A stretch of 64,000 nt of DNA from Tubiluchus corallicola. Its lineage: Eukaryota; Animalia; Priapulida. Numbering within the stretch: the stretch's first letter is position 1; each line of letters starts with the position of its first letter. Where the stretch lies: contig JAQGDQ010000085.1 in assembly GCA_030141605.1 (NCBI GenBank), forward strand, positions 124,001 through 188,000, written 5' to 3'. Position numbers and translations under genes: made by a program. Below the pieces are notes generated by a model. It did no database searches. It was not told where the DNA came from and saw only the letters and a program-made list of their open reading frames with translations. Shown here piece by piece: positions 9,850 through 39,829 of this stretch.

Positions 9850-10458
9850 AGGGAAACAGAATGTTTTTTCATATCCTACCCCATTTTAAAGTATGGTAAA
9901 AGTATACATTTCTGCACTAATAATACTGCAAAAACATTTCTGATCATCAAATAATAGATTAAAAAGTTAATTAACGTTTGGCGAGCCAAACTATTGATTT
10001 GCAGTAATGACGTAATAACAAACAAATGAAATAATTTACAATAGCAAAAACATTCCATGAGCGTGTTGCACGTGCTTGCGAAGGCGAAACTTGAAGCACA
10101 GCACTGCTGTAAGATATTCAGTGTGTTTTACTAAAACTAGGCAAGTTTTAAGATAAAAATTCAAATTTCAAATTTACAGCTGCGCTCTCGCATAAACTGT
10201 CGAACGTCTGCACTACTTTACAAACAAACACCTCTAAAATGAGAGGTACAACACCAGTTTTTGAGCAATTCGTTTCCGAAACACCTAACCAAAAAAATGC
10301 ATGTAACAGCAAAAAGCTAGCCGCGCGAACGAGAAATTATGTTTCTGTAGTAATAATTCTTTTACGCATATCATTGTTGAAAAAAACAGTATTTCCATTC
10401 AATATTTTAAAGAGTAGATTGTTTTGATCTGCAGTTTAAGATTGAGTCCGGTTTTCCT
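9850..10458 (-). mobile_element. Kolobok-like element, copy 2 (inverted)
   Basis: Reverse complement of copies 1 and 3; flanks TTAA / TCAA. Confidence 0.8.
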
Positions 10459-10694
10459 TCAAAGAAATTTAAAGAAATGTTGTGCAAGGTTGTCCCATGA
10501 CTTTTGCCCATAAAGCACTGATTACCTCGATTACTTAACAGGAATTAGAGAAACTAGTATTCACACATAGCTTACATTAATCTTTTCATACCGTACTTTG
10601 GCGTACACTATTTTAGCTCATTAATTAATTACATTGTGATTGCCAGAATTTAATAAACCATTGCGGTTTATTTTACCAATTGTTTTGGAGAAAA

Positions 10695-14429: not shown

Positions 14430-15007
14430 AGGAAAACCGGACCAAATCTTACACTGCAGGTCAGAACGTTGTACTCTTTAAAATATTGAAAGGGGGCGTA
14501 CTATTTTTTCAAGAATGACTTATGTGAGAGAATTATTACCTCACAAACTCAATTTCATGTTCGCGCGGCTATTTCTTCGCTGTTACATGCATTTCGCCAT
14601 TCGCTAGTTAGATGGGCACTAGCGCCTGCATTTCGGAAACGAAGTTGAACAAAAACAGGTGGTGTACCTCTCAATTCACAGGTGTTCGTTTGTGACGCAC
14701 AGCACATGTTCGATAGCTCATGTGTGAGCATAGCAGTAAATTCGAAATTTGAATTTTAAAACTTATCTTAAAACTTGTCGAGTTTCATTACAGTACAATG
14801 AATCTCTTACAGTAGTGCTGTACTTCCATCTTCGCTTGTGTTCATGGAATGTTTTTGCTATTTGAAAACTATGTTCCTTTGTAATGTCATCAGTAGTTGG
14901 GCTCGCCCGCCGTTAATTAAGATTTTAACCCATTATTTAATTATCAAAAACGCTTTTGCAGTATTATTGGCGTTAAAATGTATACTTTTTACCGTACTTA
15001 AAAGTGG
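14430..15007 (+). mobile_element. Kolobok-like element, copy 3 (right end unclear)
   Basis: TTAA-AGGAAAACCGGACC start; colinear with the other copies. Confidence 0.78.
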
Positions 15008-16069
15008 AGTATCATCTTACTCCAGAGGAATGCAACGCATTTAACGTCTCGTTCACTTTGGCATGGTGCACACTTTACCATCAGTTTTAGCATGGGGGCA
15101 TCCGTTAGTCTTGCCAGGCTAAACATTAATATTGTATTATTGAGTCAATTACCTTAATTAAGGCCTTAGTGAAAAAGTGAAACTTTTGGTGCGTTTTCAG
15201 GGTTTCAAATAAGCACAACAGTGTTTGAGAGGCAAGAAAAACGGCCAAAACTCGAACCCTGGTCACATTCCTCGTGAAGACTCTGAATGTGGTGTCAGAA
15301 TGTGTTGTTTAAAGTCAAACTAAACCCTCGCTGTAACATAAACTTTTACAAAACTTAAAATCCTACTCTTATTACGAATATTCAATTTATTTTATTACAA
15401 ACTTACTACAAAACTTGTTTCTTTTGATCTTTTATCACTTCGTTGTTAGCCGTATAAAATTTGAAGAACTGCCATTTTCGTTGCGCGAGATGAATGACGT
15501 AATAAGACCGTGGCGAAACCACCAAAAATTGGTAAACAAACATTGGTAACCAAAGGCGCTTTTTGCGCTACGTACATTCTAGCTCACTCACGCCAAAAAA
15601 ACGAAACATGGCGATCATTGCAGCAGTGCACGTATTCAAAATTTGCCAGAAAGAGGCAAAGTATTTCATTTATAAGTTTCTTTTGTTTCATAATAACTAT
15701 AAATTCTTCCTGTAATCATAATAATGCGTTAAAAACTTTAATGACTATTGTGGTTATGTAGGGCTGTAAATTCGAAAGAGATCTACGGCCACGTTAACGT
15801 GGAAACTTTGTTTCGAGACTGAAACGTGTTCATCATCCAGGTGAGACGCTGATCCAGCAGAGGTGTCTCAGTCACGATCAGAAGTGAATACGTCATTTCT
15901 CAACGAGACAAACAGCCACAATAAGTATGATGAATGAAACAACCCGGAGGGAGTATACTACGAATTATTCGAAGTAACTTTTTTTTTTAAAAATGCAATA
16001 CGACTTAGTGCGATACCTGAATGACAAACAACGTCACGTGACTGACTGCAATTTTCTCTCTGCGTCACA

Positions 16070-16460: not shown

Positions 16461-17379
16461 TTAAATGTGTTATAATCGATAGGCTAAATTACTTTTCTAA
16501 TGGAACTAAGAAGAAGGTAAATTAAATTAATTACACAAAGTTTATTTGTGAATATGAACTATTATTTACAATTAATCACCAATGATAGCACATAATGTTT
16601 TACACTGTGAACCAGTCTACACTCAAAACTTAAATTTTCACAACTAACACACTTAAATAAAATTAACCAAAAAATCGTTAGTTTAATTACTGGGCCGGTT
16701 AGATTCGGGTAGATTTTTAACTTACGAATTTTTCTTTTACCCTCAAATAGAACGTTGGTATGTCTAAAGTATAATTACGAAATAAAAACTAGAGTTTTAA
16801 TATTTTGCGTTACAAATTTTCCATTAATGTTGTCTAGGTTAACATGTAGTAATTTCTAATCTTCTTGATAGTTTGTATATGCTACAATATACTGTGCAAT
16901 TGTTTTTTATACTCTTCTGACCCCGAGTGTCTATAGTGTAATGCTGAGTTGCCCATGACGTTGTGCCATATCAATCGGGCCAATGCTATTATGTCATGTC
17001 ACCAAATATTTTGTCATAGTCGCGTTATGTCATAGGCTTGTGCGTATTGGTTTTTCGACTATTCCAACCAAAATGCAGGTTCAAACTTCCACAGTATGAG
17101 TATGTTACATAAGTGGTAAACTGTTGGACGACTTGGGCCTTCATTGAATTTTCAAATCAGTTAATCAGTTTTTCTTGGAGGAAACTGCCATGGAATAGCG
17201 ATAGGATAACCCCGAATGTAACACATCCCTTTCTTTGTGACCTATATTACCTACGTCAATAAATTATAATTTTATTGCTCATACCTACGAATATAAATAA
17301 ATACACCACTCATCAATAGTTATCAATAGATTAAGCTGTAATTTAAGTACTGGGCAATGACTTTCTACTGGCCTCTTTT

Positions 17380-17631
17380 CTACTTTCTTCTTCTTCGCTT
17401 TTTTATTTCAGCAATTTCTCCTTCGTCGTCTCCCATGACGTAGTCAACGACACAATCTACCCTGCACAACCTTGGTGTGTCACGACCAAAATAGTGGTGT
17501 TGCATCACTGCAACAAGCATGTTACCGGCGCTGACGACACAACTGTCGTCATCACTGTCAACACACATTTGACTAGCTTCCTCCATAAAACCTCTATCGC
17601 AGTCATCTCTTTCCACTCCGTAATCGTAACC
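17380..17631 (-). CDS. Granin/PLA2-like precursor, terminal coding exon (GYDYGVERDDCDRGFMEEASQMC...CVVSAGNMLVAV...CRVDC...KKRRRRK*)
   Basis: TTTCAG acceptor, phase 0; continues conodipine-like spacing C-G-x3-G-x-x-R-x-x-C-D-x-x-F; TAG stop; AATAAA on minus at 17271-17276; exon sum 1749 nt = 583 codons. Confidence 0.85.
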   Translation of the reverse strand, partial: GYDYGVERDDCDRGFMEEASQMCVDSDDDSCVVSAGNMLVAVMQHHYFGRDTPRLCRVDCVVDYVMGDDEGEIAEIKKRRRRK

Positions 17632-18404
17632 CTGAAACACAAAAGCACTATTGTCAGTAGTCACGTGATAACAACCACTTTTCTTAGGTTTCTCAGTTTC
17701 TCAGAAACGTCCGTTTTTCGAAATAGTGGTTAGTAAAACAACATGACGTGAAATGAATGCAAACACTTGTACAGTAACACAGTTAAAAGACAACATGAAG
17801 AAACATAAGACTTGGTTCCACCCAGAAAAAACGTTCCACCAAATTAACTCGTAGATGTTCATTCTGGTAGAAGTGTTTGTAAAACAAGTCCACATGAGCG
17901 TGTAGCCAGTTTCCCCTCTATGTTCAAGAGTTATAAATGCCCTCCAAGACCCCATCAAGTGCCACAAGAATATATTCTTTGGGATTCAAGCTACACGAAG
18001 ACGTGCGTTTCTTTTACAAGTGCCTCTGCCATGGTGAGGGACCTGTACAAACCTCTTGGCGATACATGAAATTTAACATAAAAAATTAGCAATTAAAATT
18101 AACGCCGAAAATTTCTTTTCAGAAATTCAAGTTAGTCATAAACATTCTCTATAAAACACAGTCATTGCTCGAATAATATGAACCATTTAATTACAATATG
18201 ATATGTAATATGTGATATGAACCAGTTAATTATTATAATCTTAATATCATGATTAATATTAATAATAGTACCAACCTGCAATTAATGAAATTGATTATAG
18301 TGGAATAGAAAATTAATTAGTTAGAATCACTCTTGTGAGAGCGATCTAACATTGGAAAAGCTGAATTCGGTTGCTAGCTATAAGAGATAAACTTTGGACT
18401 ACCT

Positions 18405-18490
18405 TGATGACAGTTTAGTAGTATAAAGCGTTTGCCTTGTAAGCAGAAGGTCTTTTGTTCAAATCCAAGCTATACTCCAACTTTTTCACA
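18405..18490 (+). mobile_element. Degenerate tRNA-like repeat (Thr-TGT-like anticodon arm) in last intron of the granin/PLA2 gene
   Basis: TTTGCCTTGTAAGCAGAAGGTC...GTTCAAATCC then TTTTTCA; acceptor stem broken. Confidence 0.6.
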
Positions 18491-19019
18491 TTTTCACTGT
18501 TTTCACACCGTTTTTCAAATTTGCAATCAAATTTATCTTAATATTGGTGTTGTACCTTAATGAACCTGTTGTAAATCCTTTTCGTTTCACCCAGCATTAT
18601 CCTGGTTGCGTTTTGTTTAGTAACTTAACAATTGCAAAGAACTTTTTTATAATTTTCGGGTTTGATCATTTTTTAAATCAGGTAGAAAATTCTGTCACCT
18701 GCAAATTGGAGAAATTGTGCTTCTACGTGTGCATGCATTCTCAAGTAATTTTCATCATTACAACATTCATCATTTGAAATTCTACATGCCTTCAGACCTA
18801 TTCAGATTTACTTTAGCTACAACCTCATCATTAACCCTCCCCAGAAACACAACACACAGCGTAATTATGAGCTGAATTGTTGAACAGTCGGCTTCGCCAA
18901 TAACTTGCCAACCACAGGTTGTTGCGCCATAATGAATAACCAACACTAAATAATTAACGAAAGGCATGCACAGCTTTCCATAAAGAATATTAGTGAAGAG
19001 GTGTTGAATTACTACGTAC

Positions 19020-19147
19020 GCATGTATAGCAGACTTCATGCTTGTTGCACATGTCCATGAAAATGTCCACTACTTCTGGTGGGGCGCCAGCTTCGACAGC
19101 CACGTCGCAATTTGTTACCATGACATCGATTGCAGGGCACTCATCTT
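19020..19147 (-). CDS. Granin/PLA2-like precursor, coding exon 3 (EDECPAIDVMVTNCDVAVEAGAPPEVVDIFMDMCNKHEVCYTC)
   Basis: TATAG acceptor, GTACGT donor, phase 1-0; ends in sPLA2-type C-x-x-H-[D>E]-x-C-Y-x-C motif. Confidence 0.85.
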
Positions 19148-20160
19148 CTATATACAAATTATACATACAATTACCATGCTATCATACAGCAATTAAATAG
19201 CTTAAATCAATTATTAAACAACTCGTACAGATTTTGCAACTTTATATAATCTTAAAGCCGCTGTGCGTTGCTCATTATAATAGTAGTTACTGGAAGAAAG
19301 TCACGTTTGCAATTATCTGAAGTGGGTATAGTCATGCAAAGAGTATTACTGAAAAGCTTAGAGTTGATTCGAGCAAATAAACTTTAAATTACTAATATTA
19401 TGGTGTTTGTGCACCTGCGAAGTTGACTCATTCACGTGACAATATAAGAGTGCACGTGAAATGAAACTGGTAGAAAAACCCGTTAACATTTTTAGCTATG
19501 CATTTTCTGAAAGAAAACGCTTCTCGATGCTACGTGAATTGTGAAATAAAACACGTGCTGGAAGCTTTTTAGAAATTATTGTCACTGCTTGTCTATTTGT
19601 GCAAAGTTATACGCTTGAGTCATCTTGAACAAGTAAAAATAATGATATGCAGACTCACTTTAGTTATCATTCTGAGAGATATAACTACGTCTGAAATCCA
19701 TTTGATGACATTTCAGCGATTTAAATTGAAGTTGCAAACAGGAAAAAGGAAAGGGGAAAAGAGAGAAAAAATAGAAAGAAACAAGTAAAAGAATGAATTT
19801 TTATAACAGGGTAGGACAAGAAGGAGAAGGAAAAGAAAAGAGAAGATTCCATAATTTAATAAACCGATTATATAACTGTTCAACTTGATTTTTTCTAATA
19901 AATCTTTCTTCATCATCATGCAAACTTTTTATTTTTTATTTTCCAAGTTTCTGTTTTATTGCATTACATTTCATTTTATTTTTTCTCATTTTTAATTTTT
20001 GTTTATTTAAAAAGTTATGACTATCATTAAAAATTTCCTTTAAAGCTGTAGATGGAAGAAGCCCCTTCATGCTTGTGGTAGTTTCACACTACAAGCGACT
20101 TAAACGAAAGCAGAACATTTGTATTGAACGCAAAAAATTATTTGTCTAGTCATTAGTTAC

Positions 20161-20274
20161 CCACATCCTCCCATTCTTTGCGTCTCCTGTAGAAGATTTC
20201 GTCTTTTGGTGAATACCTTGCACCAGGAAATGCCACCTGCTTTTTCCGTCTGTCTGGATACGCTACAGCAACAT
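20161..20274 (-). CDS. Granin/PLA2-like precursor, coding exon 2 (DVAVAYPDRRKKQVAFPGARYSPKDEIFYRRRKEWEDV)
   Basis: GTTTAG acceptor, G|GTAAC donor, 114 nt phase 1-1, open frame, continues the multibasic-site pattern. Confidence 0.8.
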
Positions 20275-21458
20275 CTAAACGAAACAAAATGGCGGTTGAC
20301 ACAGAAACTCAAATATTGGTTTTGTCAAGCTTTCGGAATGTTAATTTCTATCTTGATAACTCCCTCCCAACCTATTTTTGTGGCCTTTAAGCCATTCTTT
20401 GCTCCTGCTAAACCCTCCTTTACCCCAGTTTCCTCACCTGCTCCTCACTTCCCTTTCCCTCCAGCTGTCATCGCCAATCACCAAAGAAACTTGGTATCAC
20501 TGCGTTACGAAATGTGAAACAAATATTGATAAGGTCAACGGTACCACCTGAGAGCAAGGAGACTCCTCATAGTCCTGATGTTCAAGCACTTGTATCAACA
20601 CTGTCGTTCTTATTAACAGCTTTTTTTTCAAATGGAAGTACCCGCAGACCTCATTTAAAAAAATTTGTGACTAAAACAACACTTCCAGTGCTGGGTCAGA
20701 AGCTGCCACTTTGACCCTTGTCTCCTCGTCTAGGATTGTTTTCAAGTAGAGGAAAGACATTTTATTGATACTTGTAAATAAACTTTAATGATTTTAAACC
20801 ACGGCTAGTTAACCAGAACAATCCAGGTGCTCGAGACGGTCTGCGCCAAAATTGTGGAAAGTCTAAAAACTAGTTATAAATAATAAAAAGAGCTACATGG
20901 GGAGTTACTGAAGAACAGCAGGGACACTTCCAAGATTATCATACTACATAGCTTAATCCTGTACTGTAAGCCTACTTCTAGAAAAAACATTTTATTAGGT
21001 TTAATCTCACGTATTTTAAATACCTCGCGTAGTATTTAAGATTAAGATCATTTATTATCAATAAGCTTTCTAAAAGCGAATACGCCTGTGAGATTATATA
21101 AAGCGACTCTTATAAGCATTTTTGCCAAGATTGATATGCTTCTGTTTATTAATGACACACAAGGGCCACATTTGTTTTATCTAGTTTCTGAGACGTTCAG
21201 TGTGTAAAAGAGCAGGGAGCTCTATTTAAGGATTTCCACTTTTTTTAATTTTTGCAGCTTAATAGGCTTTATTAATTTTCTATTAATATTAATTTTTTCT
21301 ATTAATATTGTTGTTTACGTGTGTGTTTATGTACAAGAAATTCTATCTGCAACTACTTTTTATTTCCAAGAGCGCACAATTTTCTTGCAAATCAAGAAAA
21401 TTGCTGCACAAGTTACAAGACTGGAGTTGTTTAAAATACGTTTATGAAGAGTACTTAC

Positions 21459-22713
21459 CGTTGGGTAATGGTTGATTCCACCATCTTTCGCCTCTATTTG
21501 ACAGATACTGTCTTTTTAGTACTGCATTTGGGACTGCATCGAAGGAAAACGGCATTTGAGTATCGTAACGAAATGGCGGTTCGACATTATCACTTTCTTC
21601 TTCTTCAAATTCTTCGTCATCTTCAAAGTCTTCGTTATTCATCGTATAACTTTCCAATGCTTCAATTAGTTTTTCTGCATCGTAAGCAAGTCGCAGTTTT
21701 TTAAATTCACTTTCCAAATTGGGATCTTCTTCTGCTGACAAGTGCTGGCTTTGTGCCATTTGAATTTCTGAAAGTGCTTCGTCCAAAGCAGCATTTTCAA
21801 TGTCACTAAGTGCATCAACTACACTATCCAAGACTTCTTCAGTTACTTCTTCAGAATCTTCGGCTTCAGTACCGTCTTCTAGAGAATCTACAATATATGG
21901 CTCCTCATCTTCATTATCATTCTCATCTTCGATATCATCATTCTCATTTTCAGCTTCTAAACGCCCCTGTTTTTCATATTCTAAATCTTTGTTCATTTCG
22001 TTTTTAAACAAGTTAAACAACCACTCATTCATATCTTCTTTTGATTGTTCTTCATCAGATTCTGTTTCATCCTCTTCTTCTTCCTCCATTTCGTCTTCTT
22101 GTTCTTCACTATTATTTTCAGAATTACTGCCTTCCATATTTTCTGAATTATCTATCTCTTCTGCTGCTTTAATTTTTGCAAAAACTTTATGTAGTCTTTC
22201 TTGTTGGTCGTTTTCATCATCATCATCAAATCGCAAACGTCCGTAATTTTCACTCTTTTTTCGTTTCTGTCCTTCAGCACCCATTATGAATTGGAACTCC
22301 CGTCTACGCTCGCTCTCGTGATCTAAGTCTTCTCTTTTCTTTTTCTTTTCGTTTTTTCCATCACCCTGATAGAAGTTTTCCATATCATCCCTGTCAGCTT
22401 CTCTTGCACCAAATTGTGCTATTGCATTTGCTAGCACATCTCGCATGTCTCCCTCCTGTCTTTTCCTGACAGCAAGGCGCTTTTTGAACTGGTAAGGCCT
22501 ATGTAAGATGTCGCTGACTTGATTGTCATCCAAACTTTTTCTTTTACGCTGAATAACGTCTAAGGCGCGAGTAAGACTAGGCGCATCATAGTTGTCATCA
22601 TACAACTCAGCTGGCTCGTAGTACCTCTTCCTAAACGTATATGCGTAAGAAGACACTTCCGGAAAAAGCACCACTCCTATGAGGAGGCATGCAGCTACCG
22701 TTAGAAGCCCCAT
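21459..22713 (-). CDS. Granin/prohormone-like secreted precursor, coding exon 1 (signal peptide + acidic region with multibasic sites)
   Basis: 423-aa ORF; hydrophobic N-terminus MGLLTVAACLLIGVVLFPEVSS; repeated RKR/KKR/RRR/KRKK sites; E/D-rich body; acceptor TTTTTCAG at 22745-22752 upstream; donor G|GTAAGT after 21459 (phase 1). Confidence 0.9.
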
Positions 22714-24424
22714 TGCAAATGAACGCTAATGATAAAATGCCATCCTGAAAAAATACAGATAATTACCACCTTAATGCGCCTAGCAGCAACTATACAAATA
22801 GCACAAAATCTGTTGGGAGTAGCATCTCTATTCTTTACCCGCTGGCAAATTACCCCTTGTGTCGATTCCGGTTATAATTATTAATTAATCCATTTTTATA
22901 CTATATAAATCAAAAGTGCTGAAGTCAGATATTTTTAGCATTTCAGATTAATTGTGTTTTAATTCAATATTTTAGATTACTTGTATTTAGTTTCCTTTTT
23001 TATTTACTTGTAACGTTACTTTTATAAAGTCTGAAGATGAGTTGAGTTAAAAGAGTGTTTGTGACATTGGGTAGGGATAGAATAATGTTTATATCTCTTA
23101 TAAAGCTCATAAAACACATTAAGAAGTTTTGCAGATGGCTGACGAAGAAATTTCCTTAATTTCTACTATTACGGAACGCAAAATTCAATATTTTAGTTGC
23201 CTAATTCGTGCCAGTGTGATACAAGGATTGTTGCTGAAGTTGCTGGAATGTACCATGGATGCAAGTGTAGAAGCCAGAGGGATGGAGGGATGACTGAATT
23301 GTTGATGTTGATGATGTCTTTACCAGCTTCTTTTTGCAGGCAAGACTGAAAAAATCGGACATGACACTAGATGGTAATGATGAATTAAAAACTCTTTTTC
23401 AACAAACTGTGCTGTATATAAGCTGAAAGCTAACACACGTGTAGGCCTACAGACACTTTCATGCGTCATATTTAAAGAATATTATATCCACCAGACTGTA
23501 CCTTGATTACTTCTGCTAGTATATTGTGAAGTGAACTAATGTAATACATTGGCTGATGTCGGATAATGAGTGTCAGGCTTTTTACTAAAAATAATAAAGC
23601 CGATTAGACAATGTTGTCAAGAAATATGTATCTTCGAGGCATGGGGTGTGTTGTTTCTTGTAACGTGTTTGTCTAAGTCGCCTAGCAAACAGCTTTTGTT
23701 ATGCTTCAAGCATGTAACAATAGAATACGCAGTCGTCTTCTGCATGAAATGTCTAATGTATGAAATGCTTCCTTTTCTATGTGTTGTGAAATAACGTTTG
23801 TTAAACATTACGGTAAACTCTCTAGTCTTGCATTGATCATTATTGTCCTTAATTTATTAATATGCAAACTACAGCGTTTTTAGACCACGCAGGTACAATT
23901 TAACATAAGTACTAATGTGTTGTGTACTAGTGCTAGTCTTGTATTAATGCAATTACTAATTTAATTAATTAATTATCATTGTAAATATCATTATGTAGAT
24001 TCTGTAGAAAGCAAAGTTAATTTCATACGTATTTTACTCTTGAACAAAATTTAAAATCTTTTCGAACTTTGAGGCCAAAATTAAGCATTCGGTCTAATAA
24101 ATTTCACATTCTTGTCTTCTATAACAATCAAAACCTTTGTTGCTTGCCTACTGTTTCTGTTTTTCCTCTTCTTTACTAATAAACAAAAGGAAAGGACTGT
24201 GTTTACATAAATTTGTTAGTTTTAGTGAAGCCTCAAACTCATTGTATGAAACGAGATAAGAATAATATAACATGATAAGACCTGTTTGCTGGCGACGAGG
24301 GGGGGGTGCTAGACAAACACGCTGCACGAAAAAATATATGGGCATATTGGCATATTTCTCAACAACAGTGTCTGTACTGTTATATTACTTTCAGTAAAAC
24401 CTGAAACTTATTATCTGACATCAG

Positions 24425-32690: not shown

Positions 32691-33294
32691 TTTCTTAAGT
32701 CTTTTCTTAATTGGGTACTGGCTATTATTTTTGTGTTTTAATTATTTTACAATGTATTAATGCTGAGGATCTTAAGAACGAAGCCCTCCGCTTCATTTTT
32801 AAAAGCTGTGTTGTTTCACTTCCTGTTTGAAATTAAATCATGCACTTATATAGATTTTGTATTTTAAACGTTTGAGCGCACGGCGATAGAAAACGCTTGC
32901 CGTGAACAATATTTTATTGGCGATATTTCAAATTTACCATGAATTTTGTGCAGTTACTGTTGCTTTGTTGGTCATTAAATTAAAGATAAACATGTTTTCG
33001 CAAATGAGGCCCAAGAGGCCAAGCTTTCAAACTTTATGATATAAGCAACTTTGTAGATGTTTTATAAGCAAAATTTACAATGCACATGCTACTGTATGTA
33101 GAAAAACATAAACATACAGATTGCAAAACTAAACGATGCTTCGAAAGTTGAAAACATAACCACGTATATCCACGAGAACTGATGACTTTGAATAGAGCCT
33201 ATCGTAGCTTGAATTTCATAATGCATCATTAAAACTACCAGTGTTATAACACGTCCGATTTTCATTGTTTTTCATTGCTTTTCACAAGAAAGAA

Positions 33295-33604
<310 letters not shown>

Positions 33605-33881
33605 ATCTTTTTACACAGTTTTTTGCCAACGTGATATTATTTTGGCTAGCAAAATTGTTTCGAGAATTGATGTATTTAGAGTAATTTCAATAATTACTTG
33701 CTGTTTTAGAAATAAGTGCGAATAACTATAAGCATGCAGTATGTGGTTTTATAAAGCCAACAAAACCTGTGACAGATAGACTTAAATTTTATTTCTACAT
33801 TCTTGATTAAACTTGTTCACCGTACATGATGGGACCAAGCTAGGACAGCCAAAATCCGGATATCTTGTCCTGGCAATATTA

Positions 33882-35255: not shown

Positions 35256-36437
35256 TAGTTACAAAAAGTCAAGACCAGTGACCAGAGAGATGAAAATCAC
35301 ATCACATTTGCCGGGGAGGCGCAAATGAGGTATTTGAAAACTTTTCAGTTTTTTACACGAACACTAGAAGTTTGACTAACTAAGCAAAAAGTAGATCTTT
35401 ATGTTTGAACTATGAACTATTGACTATGAACTATGAACTACATGAAATATATGAGCTATTATCTGTGAACCAACGCCAGGTGGAACGTAAACCCTGCCGA
35501 GACGCTGACAATCCTAAAAGATGTTCTACATTTCTGAATAAACATGAACTACATTGCAATAGTGTTCACGGTAAGCCAAAATTAGTCCCCAGATGCACCT
35601 CTCTATCTTCAAATCAAAAGCCATAAAATAAAGCACAGAAAGCGCAGTATTGATTGTCTTCTCAACTAAAGGAAGTGCAAAAATATCAGACCAGTTTGTA
35701 GAGAGCGTAATTTTTTTACTAAGCAGTAGATCTAATTTTAGCACTTTTCCCCGTGATTAAGTTGTAAACTAAACGAATCCATGCAGTACTCACCAGTATA
35801 AACGAATCGGATGATCAGTGTGAGAAATTGTCTACTCGTAAACCTTTCCGAGATTGTCCATATAAAATTTCCGGAAAATATTCGTTCTTGTGCGCAGGCT
35901 TCAGCCGCGTCCTGAGAAGCCAAATCAGTCGATGATGCAGAGCACCCTAGGGGCGCATGCGCTCCGCCTGTTTACTCGTAGTAAGCAACAAATCAAGCGA
36001 TTATTAGTGCACTGATCAATTCTATAATCGTGCTTGATTGGACTGTAGTTGAGCTAAAGTTAGCACATCTACGTGTGGTCACTGGCTAGAAAAAAAATCA
36101 ACATTTGTTGACGTTGTAAAAAATGCAAGCATAAACGTTTTGCATTAGCTTCAAGTTTTGATTTCTGAAAGCTCCCAATAGAGACTTTAAAAGAATTCTA
36201 TGGATAGGAAGAAACTGATCCAAAGTAAATTAAACTATATATCATAGAGTAATTTTAACAAATAATTAAATTGAGTTGTCAAGTTTAATATAAATTCTAC
36301 ATTCAAAATTTTCAAAGCCATTTTCAAAAATTAATAGTGCCTCTGAGTACTCAATGTCCCTGCCTTTGCCATTGCCGTTGCCATTGGCGTTTTCGCTGAC
36401 GTTGCCTCCTACTGTTGCTGTCGTTGCTGATTCTGAA

Positions 36438-36503
<66 letters not shown>
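36438..36503. repeat. (GCT)n trinucleotide repeat
   Basis: Direct reading. Confidence 0.97.
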
Positions 36504-36508
<5 letters not shown>

Positions 36509-38689
36509 TGTTGCCTTGAAAGGTAGAATCATACGATGACATTCGATTGTATAGCTTGTGGGAGTTTTGAAGATTTGTTAACAACTAATTACATATTAAT
36601 ATAAAATACAAGGCCAGTCAATTTGCTTTTCAATTAACTCAGAGTTGGCACGTCTAATTGCAAAGTCATGTTTTCTTGACACAAAGCAGGATTGCTTGGA
36701 TTTCGGTCAACCACTTCGCTGAATGCGGTTGGTTGATTAACACAAGGAAAACGTAATTTACCTTCCAGGTCTATTTGCCATGTTATTAAGATTATAAGCA
36801 CTGCTTAAACATAAAACGTTTATTATATTGTCAGTAGCTATCGCTTGCTAGGACACCACAAGTAGTTTCTGCATAAAGATAACGGGGCGTAAAAGTTACC
36901 GTGATCGCTATAACTGGTATTCAAACAATTTTTATTGCAAGCATTTCAACATTTCGTTTGTTATTTTCATTATCGCAACAGAAGAAGAAGAAAGAATTTT
37001 CACTATCAGCGTATAGCCTGTAACAAGAAAAACTCGGTCAATAACAAATAGTTGATTAAAAAATCACCTAATCTGTAACTGTACAGTGGGTATAATATTT
37101 TGCAAAAATGTTCTTTAATGTGTAAATAACATGCAGTGTGCGAATAACTGCATCTTTTGAACAGCAGTCAGTGCTATTCTGTACACTTGACATTTTCATA
37201 TATAGAAGTAGTTGTTCATTAATTACTTACTAATGAAGGTATGTAATACATAACATACTGCAACCTCGTCTCACGCTCACACGTAATCATACATGTCGTC
37301 AAATGACAGACGTATTTAGCCAGCGAGCAAGTTTGAAAAGGGCAGTAGTATCTCCGAATTAACTTCCGAGTCGATTTGAGCCGTGCCACCTCACTTTTAA
37401 TGAAGGTTAAGCTGGCATATTGACAGGAAAATGGGATTTTCGATCAACTCGGCATTAATCTTGATCATGTCAGACTGAACAACCAAATCCCTTTTGATTA
37501 CGGAATGCTAATAACAAATGGTCTCGGAGGCCATTACACAGCACTGCTGATGGGAAATAAAAATTCCTTATTTATTGTTCTACACGTCAGCGAAAGAGTT
37601 AACGAATAATGAGTGGCGAGAGACTAGATTGCAGGTCAGCAGTTAAGAGCACGTAGGGTTCCCATACAGACCATGGTCAAAGAATGGAATTTCTCCGATA
37701 AGAAAGAATAACGCCATAATTGATAAAGCCATGCAGGCATAACTGAAGATTAGTCGTTGTATTTACTTATGTGTGTTTATTTAATCATACTTGCTGATTA
37801 TTTCTTTAGAGATGCTCATAGTTAAGCAACACTTAGTTCACGCAACTAAACGCACGCACTCACAAACTCACTCACATGCATGCAGACACATTCTCTATCT
37901 TTATGCAAACATATAATTATATATATATTTATTTATATATTATATGATATATATATCATACGTTTTGATTGTATTTTTATGGATTCTATCGTATTTTTAT
38001 TTTACACAGCACATCAAAACGTGCAATGTGAGATTTTATGTTTTAAAAAAGTAAAAAAAAACATGAAGTTAATGGTAAGGAATTGAGCTTTACGGAAGTA
38101 CAGATACCATCCTCTGCATACAAACACAGTTAACAGAGCATAGATTCCACAATGCATAGAACTTACACTATTTGCCCACCTAGACCTTAGCACCCCGTTA
38201 CCAAAACACTGTCCTAGATCATAGAACGTGAACAGGTGGTCAACACAACAATGGCTACAATAAAAGTTCAAGGAAGAGAAAACAACATGTAAATCCCAGG
38301 TTAAATCACGCTAAAGTTGAAAAAAGAACCCAGCAGGATGCTAGCAACACTTGGTTTTTTGTGACTGTCATATGTGGTCTGCTTATAATAGCTCAAACAT
38401 CGTTTCACGACTTTAACCAGATTGATCATCTTGCTACCCTGCAAAAGTCAGCCCCAGGTAGAACTTAGTGCTTGTGGAAATTTTTCGTTGTTGTTGTGCT
38501 GCATCAAGGTGAGTTATAGAGAACTAATTATGGTTATTACAGACATAATGGTTTGCTTGAAATTACTCGCCTAACAGCGTTAAACAACAAATATAAATAA
38601 GCTTCATACTTTGAAATGTTCATTTTCGTAAGTTTTTAGTATAGCTCAAAATAATAGAGTTAGTTTCTCATTTATTCAGTCAGGCATAG

Positions 38690-39317: not shown

Positions 39318-39390
39318 TGCCCCGAGTGAGGCTCGAACTCACGACCTTCAGATTATGAGACTGACGCGCTGCCGACTGCGCCATCGAGGC
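39318..39390 (-). tRNA. tRNA-Met (CAT), elongator type
   Basis: GCCTCGATGGCGCAGTCGGCAGCGCGTCAGTCTCATAATCTGAAGGTCGTGAGTTCGAGCCTCACTCGGGGCA folds to a cloverleaf; GTTCGA T-loop; TTTT terminator just downstream. Confidence 0.97.
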
Positions 39391-39829
39391 ACGACGACAT
39401 TACTTCCGTTAAATTTACTTCTTTCATGGCGTCAGGCATTGGCAGGAAACTTAACCGTTTATTCAGTTGTAATTTCTACAAAAAATTAGATAGCGAATAC
39501 GTACAACTATAGCGCACAACTCTATAATGATTGCTGAGCTCCATAATTGTATTTCAGCCCAAAAAGGTTGAAACTGATGTCAAGCATAGCAACAGATGAG
39601 ACTGACGCGCTGCCGACTGCGCCATCGAGGCACGACGACATTACTTCCGTTAAATTTACTTCTTTCATGGCGTCGGGCATTGGCAGGAAACTTAACCGTT
39701 TATTCAGTTGCAATTTCTACAAAAAATTAGATAGCGAATACGTACAACTATAGCGCACAACTCTATTATGATTGCTAAGCTCCATAATTGTATTTCAGCC
39801 CAAAAAGGTTGAAACTGATGTCAAGCATA
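39355..39829. repeat. Near-identical tandem duplication, period 241 bp (39355-39588 / 39596-39829)
   Basis: Direct alignment by eye, only a handful of substitutions. Confidence 0.95.
39596..39631 (-). pseudogene. 5' half of tRNA-Met (nt 1-36, ends at anticodon) in a 241-bp tandem duplication
   Basis: Identical to 39355-39390; lacks T-arm/B-box. Confidence 0.9.

Follow-up and report, generated by a model that had tools for sequence, protein, structure and literature searches.

A putative granin-like precursor with a phospholipase A2-derived module in the priapulid Tubiluchus corallicola, a likely orthologue of insect fliktin

A stretch of 64,000 nucleotides from the priapulid Tubiluchus corallicola (GenBank assembly GCA_030141605.1, contig JAQGDQ010000085.1, positions 124,001 to 188,000 of the forward strand; hereafter, the window) carries on its minus strand, at 17380-22713, the coding exons of a gene for an acidic, multibasic precursor of 582 amino acids (aa) whose C-terminus resembles phospholipase A2 (PLA2). 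The gene is real. By sequence comparison, its product belongs to one family spread across bilaterians, in which an acidic N-terminal part is followed by a PLA2-derived C-terminus, and it is likely an orthologue of an insect protein known as Pea-NPLP, PaOGS36577 or fliktin. By analogy, we read it as a content protein of dense-core vesicles in neurons, granin-like in function and orthologous to fliktin, with a probably inactive PLA2 domain, and give this reading a probability of about one in two.

A preliminary description, made from the sequence alone, had proposed a granin-like prohormone fused to a cleavable PLA2-like module and knew of no named family with this architecture. The motif order of the precursor nevertheless matches by eye that of Pea-NPLP/fliktin, and membership of that family is very likely. 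The architecture thus belongs to an insect family already described, although functionally uncharacterized; such a match was one of the outcomes that the preliminary description had itself named as counting against it. What the literature searches did not retrieve is any earlier printed account of the bilaterian range of the family, of the pseudo-PLA2 identity of its C-terminus or of the folded hairpin described below.

Gene structure and layout of the precursor

Coding exon 1 (21459-22713, 418 codons plus one nucleotide) encodes the signal peptide, a multibasic region, an acidic region and a helical hairpin. Exon 2 (20161-20274) contains the candidate peptide QVAFPGARYSPKDEIFY (20189-20239), between RRKK and RRRK. 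The PLA2-like module is divided between exon 3 (19020-19147), which carries its first half with a His-Glu pair at 19040-19035, and exon 4 (17380-17631), which carries the second half with a conserved Cys-Asp (17601-17596), a basic tail (17403-17383) and the stop codon. An AATAAA motif is found at 17276 on the same strand. In the window sequence, GT donors, AG acceptors and phases are all compatible, and the four exons give 582 aa and a stop, in agreement with the model first proposed.

Splicing was followed in the contigs of run X2, presumed to be RNA; five of the six aligned contigs are 90-95% alike to the window, which indicates another individual or a close species. All three predicted introns are joined in these contigs: the 21459/20274 junction is exact, the 19020/17631 junction is joined (CT..AC, cut +1), and the middle one (20161/19147) is joined with three differing letters at the joint. 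At this same joint, the Logan protein P0001 also differs by one residue. P0001 (581 aa) has the whole spliced layout and is 87% identical overall to the window protein (90% over residues 1-185), although P0001 and X2 are possibly not mutually independent. Read-through of the 21459 donor, which had been raised as an objection to the model, is not seen: no X2 contig continues to the stop at 21442, and a minor isoform is still compatible with the contig data. Among the X2 coding substitutions listed, 25/33 are at codon position 3; 21 of the codons hit change synonymously and 11 non-synonymously. Record 10 of X2 has a loose end at 21501, 5' of the joint between exons 1 and 2, which resembles exon 2; a chimera of assembly or library origin is probable, and a back-splice is possible. 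The gene is present only once in the window.

The gene has a further, non-coding first exon that was absent from the earlier model. A loose X2 contig end at 22745 maps to 35795-35824 with 2/30 mismatches, a match reached by 0/100 shuffles, and is followed there by a GT donor (35793-35792). The 3' end of this exon is thus placed at 35794-35824 on the minus strand, and a 13-kb intron separates it from the AG acceptor at 22746-22745. The 5' leader of the first coding exon (22714-22744) contains an upstream open reading frame (ORF) of five codons (22743-22726), in the frame of the main ATG and stopping just ahead of it, which could tune translation. The palindrome GCGCATGCGC is found at 35953-35962 on the minus strand, some 140 bases upstream of the part of the first exon that was mapped, and is one of two copies on that strand in the window; it resembles an NRF1/EWG site.

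The precursor begins with a predicted signal peptide (residues 1-22; 22648-22713), called by hydropathy only and followed by YAYTF-RKR, which is identical in Priapulus. The multibasic region (residues 23-153; 22255-22647) has seven basic clusters and includes YAYTF as well as a family-wide LxxAL helix (residues 46-59) with basic residues at its end. Next comes an acidic, largely disordered region (residues 154-399; 21517-22254), the stretch of about 240 aa noted at first, which measures 246 aa. Short conserved helices occur within it at residues about 172-182 and 226-252, the latter called the EWL helix, and so does a conserved helical hairpin, predicted to be folded (residues about 296-356; 21646-21828), that the preliminary description had missed. 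Basic sites are located at residues 28-30, 56-59, 77-79, 83-85, 123-127, 136-138, 150-153, 400-401, 427-430, 448-451 and 576-582. They account for every multibasic site claimed earlier, and there is an extra, previously unlisted KK at 338-339. The mature chain has 11 basic clusters. The ten cysteines of the C-terminal module were counted correctly and lie at residues 460-559. In the predicted full-length model of P0001, the hairpin is confident, with a predicted local distance difference test score (pLDDT) of 91-96, and most of the remainder is disordered, with pLDDT <50 over 188-224, 256-285 and 373-394.

The PLA2-derived module and its family

The homology proposed between the module and conodipine-type PLA2s is upheld by profile comparison. 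Thirty-six precursor modules aligned with 24 short PLA2-type proteins at a probability of 99.6% (hhalign, E 4.7e-24, 98 columns), and the precursor-module profile matches the microbial PLA2 structures 7ygk, 1faz and 8k1w with E 0.006-0.02. The Cys frame, the catalytic His, the downstream Cys-Asp and the C-terminal Cys pair are common to the module and the short PLA2s, and the relatives found with phmmer include matches to Pfam PF09056 and PF06951 (Phospholip_A2_3, PLA2G12). The label "conodipine-type" is a provisional one for the short proteins. The AlphaFold model of the module is confident and all-helical (pLDDT 90.9). Foldseek returned nothing for it at E<=0.001; in the VIA structure ranking, a Tuber PLA2 came out on top (Z 5.9, root-mean-square deviation 3.4, 84 aligned), a place that it shared with helical proteins of no relation. 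The PLA2 clusters at 0.80 in the ESM Atlas are a lead only. Pfam searches with the single exons and with P0001 gave no real family, and a single-sequence search of the PDB gave only a designed helical repeat.

The module region retrieved 114 matches with phmmer among 1.84 billion representatives, and a profile search 28 proteins, 17 of them new. Two kinds of relatives were found: long acidic proteins with the module at the C-terminus, and short proteins of about 100-200 residues. Named long members come from scorpions, horseshoe crabs, spiders, mites, ticks, bivalves, a cephalopod, annelids and Lingula and, among deuterostomes, from a crinoid, a sea urchin and amphioxus. Their database names ("IWS1", "eIF5B-like", "FK506-binding protein 5") are uninformative and would be corrected by the present assignment. 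Vertebrate, cnidarian and nematode names are absent among the matches, many of which are unnamed, and no dedicated search of those groups was made. The nearest relative is Priapulus caudatus P0002 (607 aa), an uncharacterized protein with the same layout and peptides, which differs by a longer acidic insert ahead of the module; this affinity by itself would suggest a scalidophoran-like worm as the source. Its automatic name, "IWS1 homolog", appears to derive from acidic composition. In Owenia fusiformis (P0021), the module is followed by a VWA domain and its C-terminal end seems altered, so that a gene-model fusion is possible.

In a maximum-likelihood tree (IQ-TREE), one branch (SH-aLRT 99) parts 77 precursor-type from 46 short PLA2-type modules. 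As the group labels were read off the tree, counting a single change on it is circular; the His-Asp pair and protein length are the independent traits. Within the precursor-type group, named members cluster by phylum. At least 200 aa lie upstream of the module in 68/77 precursor-type proteins vs 1/46 short PLA2s, so that an acidic N-terminus, first suspected to be always attached, is nearly always so, though not in all 77.

The catalytic region separates the two groups further. The signature CxxHDxCYxCG quoted in the preliminary description does not hold for the window protein, whose motif reads CNKHEVCYTC, with His-Glu instead of His-Asp. The residue after His is Glu in 51 and Gln in 15 of the 77 precursor modules, the remainder having others, and at least six different residues replace the Ca2+ ligand across the precursor clade. 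The His-Asp pair is kept in 1/77 precursor modules vs 44/46 short PLA2s, which makes the module a likely pseudoenzyme, derived from a PLA2 and inactive. In group I/II PLA2, the residue at this position binds Ca2+, and a D49E variant retains Ca2+ binding without reacting (PMC10150362). An upstream GC[STN] motif is present in 37/46 short forms vs 6/77 precursors. Charge differs as well: 67/77 precursor modules are net negative (-19 in P0001), whereas the short proteins, which stand alone, are net basic. Two members of the chelicerate clade, P0018 (HD) and P0026 (YD), have Asp after the His position, either by reversion or as a retained state.

Protostome members have, according to profile and structure predictions, a common folded hairpin besides the module. 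When exon 1 was compared with a hidden Markov model (HMM) of arthropod N-terminal parts from which the module had been removed, a match of 30.5 bits centred on the EWL helix and the hairpin was obtained, and none of 400 controls reached it (maximum 16.8 in 200 shuffles and 10.5 in 200 local shuffles); the set included one misfiled annelid, which was removed for the later hairpin HMM. Hairpin HMMs built without the window protein match its residues about 291-366 with 15.5 bits (arthropod) and 19.9 bits (spiralian), and 0/300 local shuffles reach either score. Since both match, the window protein bridges the two groups. Compared directly, the arthropod and spiralian hairpin profiles, with cores pattern-cut from 21/27 and 20/28 proteins, align weakly (probability 36%, score 22.7, with 14.2 as the highest score among 40 column shuffles). 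Exon 1 went unrecognized by a full-length spiralian N-terminal HMM (-8.2 bits), and the ESM Atlas returned nothing for the hairpin. In the alignment of 44 protostome proteins, one Ala of the hairpin is present in 44/44 and several positions in 40-43/44; residues 251-252 are a basic pair in 40-42/44, without being KR in the window protein.

Orthology with insect fliktin and the proposed role

The supplement of PMC9552230 prints, under the name Pea-NPLP (a "Periplaneta neuropeptide-like precursor"), a protein of 691 aa from Tenebrio molitor. The accessions of the named insect precursors are ON125388 for T. molitor and PQ049281 for R. maderae. Pea-NPLP is the same as PaOGS36577, called fliktin in ants, and mass spectrometry has detected its non-amidated peptides in beetles and a cockroach, in their ganglia and retrocerebral complex (PMC9552230, PMC12604039). 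In the Tenebrio sequence, the LxxAL helix, the EWL helix, the hairpin and, at the C-terminus, a Cys module in which Gln follows His are recognized by eye in the same order as in the window protein. FPVxKR and IDWS motifs are common to it and to the family proteins P0091, P0102 and P0108. Size class, signal peptide, multibasic sites and non-amidated peptides are also alike. Among the beetle peptides, one matches the EWL helix; in the window protein, no basic pair precedes this helix. The window protein also has no IDWS peptide, and its YAYTF and QVAF peptides are shared only with Priapulus. As IDWS marks a sub-group only, the window gene is filed as a likely orthologue rather than as an insect-type fliktin.

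Full-text searches for "fliktin" and "PaOGS36577" gave insects only, without non-insect members or a PLA2 link; the founding papers (Zeng 2021; Habenstein 2021) lie outside the coverage of these searches. Likewise, the available portions of the Pea-NPLP accounts are restricted to insects and mention neither PLA2 homology nor a folded hairpin (PMC9552230, PMC12604039). Chiton and oyster members occur as unnamed entries in the supplement of PMC6425005. Family motifs gave nothing in the supplement of PMC8398477 or in the searched supplement files of PMC3890597, and the text of NP-HMMer, as far as available, does not name the family (bioRxiv 2024.07.20.604414).

Two other families were considered and rejected. 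Drosophila Sparkly resembles the vertebrate granins (chromogranins, secretogranins, VGF) and the present precursor in being acidic and multibasic with mostly non-amidated, non-repetitive products (PMC11196111), but it has no cysteines and is restricted to Diptera. A Baratin/NVP-like precursor (NVP and WGGF peptides, about 320 aa) does not fit either, no WGGF being present in any of the proteins collected; in beetles, the NVP precursor is a separate protein of 322 aa (PMC9552230).

The granin traits of the window protein are its acidity (isoelectric point 4.3, D+E 27%), its multibasic sites and its predicted signal peptide. As a granin-like content protein, it would enter the regulated secretory pathway through this signal peptide. 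The acidic disordered region may bind Ca2+ and help to condense granule cargo at low pH, the hairpin may provide a self-association or sorting surface, and the disulfide-bonded pseudo-PLA2 would act not as an enzyme but as a unit that docks on a partner protein or on the granule membrane. Convertases of the PC1/3 and PC2 types, with carboxypeptidase E, would cut the precursor into short peptides, such as YAYTF and the QVAF peptide, and into an acidic hairpin fragment of roughly 245 aa; in Tubiluchus, cutting at RRRK 448-451 would free the module (roughly 125 aa). Some of the peptides may signal, but they vary from phylum to phylum and are probably of secondary importance. Conservation between phyla lies in charge, in disorder, in a few helices and in the two folded units rather than in any peptide motif, as expected for a granule scaffold.

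The closest competitor is a classical neuropeptide precursor, in which short receptor ligands would be the purpose and the acidic region and module neurophysin-like carriers. This is a doubtful alternative. The identity of YAYTF-RKR in Priapulus and the higher identity with P0002 of the QVAF peptide region (residues 431-449; 68%) than of the module (47%) speak for it, as does the abundance of Pea-NPLP peptides in insect ganglia and neurohemal organs (PMC9552230). However, no peptide is common across phyla, YAYTF, IFYR and RALDV being found only in P0001 and P0002 among the proteins collected. Amidation signals are rare, with Gly preceding only 17/627 KR/RR sites; together with beetle peptides that end in -OH (PMC9552230), this bears out the largely non-amidated processing first suggested. 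The available portions of the insect reports name no receptor for the Pea-NPLP peptides. As the peptides are lineage-specific and rarely amidated, and cut sites near the module are sparse, a granin-like content protein fits better than a dedicated peptide precursor.

A role of the pseudo-PLA2 module as a secreted protein hormone or receptor ligand in its own right, with everything upstream as a long pro-region, is rather unlikely. The module is the only part kept in all members including deuterostomes, it is flanked here by RRRK and the basic tail, and some PLA2 homologues are known to act biologically without catalysis (PMC10150362). Yet only 22/68 long members have KR/RR within 20 aa of the module, at a median distance of 41 aa, and the strong conservation of the protostome hairpin would go unexplained. 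Support for the release of a folded module, predicted here at RRRK 448-451, is therefore weaker than first proposed.

Otoconin-90 combines inactive PLA2 domains with acidic stretches. An extracellular-matrix or biomineral protein of this kind would agree with a very acidic, predicted secreted protein with an inactive PLA2-like domain, and with the few basic sites of echinoderm members; it is improbable for a family that occurs in non-mineralizing animals (priapulid, mites, spiders, annelids) and whose insect members are processed in nerve tissue (PMC9552230). Least probable of all is an active PLA2 zymogen restrained by an acidic pro-region, for despite a nearly invariant His and second Asp, a complete Cys frame and the His-Asp of chelicerate P0018, at least six different residues occupy the Ca2+-ligand position in the clade, and the GC[STN] motif has disappeared.

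Several points weigh against the reading as a granin-like vesicle protein of the fliktin family. Pfam granin families gave no match for P0001 at E<=10, nor for 59 relatives at E<=0.01. "Granin-like" is therefore an analogy only, and the window protein is, by sequence, outside the vertebrate granin family. Granins are not known to have a PLA2-derived domain. The named beetle protein was compared by eye, with unnamed Logan matches as intermediates and not by scored alignment, and neither P0001 nor P0002 nor the chelicerate members have the IDWS peptide of the beetle precursor and four mandibulate-type matches. Occurrence in nerve tissue and cutting into non-amidated peptides come from beetles and cockroaches only, the window gene being known from its sequence. 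The tree is a quick one (123/131 modules, eight without the motif being excluded; 113 columns; no bootstrap) and leaves the window protein at a protostome node that it does not resolve. In the protostome alignment, 43/44 proteins keep the catalytic His and 44/44 the downstream Asp, so that residual chemistry is possible; the D49E variant that binds Ca2+ without reacting is one of group I/II PLA2 (PMC10150362), a different group from that of the module. Finally, the hairpin HMMs match none of the six deuterostome members compared (best 3.7 bits) and KR/RR is missing upstream of the module in the sea-urchin member, whence the role may differ between lineages.

More broadly, and tentatively, fliktin may be one branch of an unrecognized family that goes back to the protostome-deuterostome ancestor or earlier, in which a secreted PLA2 would have lost its Ca2+ ligand and been fused to an acidic, convertase-cut scaffold. 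Such a protein might be the functional counterpart of vertebrate granins in invertebrate neurons, its pseudo-PLA2 fastening granule cargo to the vesicle membrane or being set free as a new class of protein ligand. With the present result, an insect "neuropeptide-like" orphan becomes a bilaterian-wide family with two folded, conserved parts, and the hairpin and the pseudo-PLA2, in place of short lineage-specific peptides, become the centre of attention. The family would also offer a clear example of a pseudoenzyme made from an enzyme and built into a prohormone-like protein, more than half a billion years ago by the date of bilaterian divergence. Candidate genes are now at hand in laboratory animals: Tenebrio, oyster with CGI_10019003, sea urchin with XP_030838064, and amphioxus.

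Other features of the window

A long open frame rich in Ser, Thr, Glu and Asn extends over 44132-45397 on the plus strand, with AG near 44147 and GT near 45342. It has no Pfam match and probably represents a mucin-like exon from the interior of a different gene. At 33222-33725 and 36430-36510, long (GA)n and (CAG)n microsatellites give spurious ORFs. Some 240 bases are duplicated in tandem, almost perfectly (98% identity), at 39355-39829. Between 6975 and 15011, dispersed and inverted repeat copies of up to 620 bases with 72-83% identity are present, at about 7000, 9900-10460 and 14430-15010.

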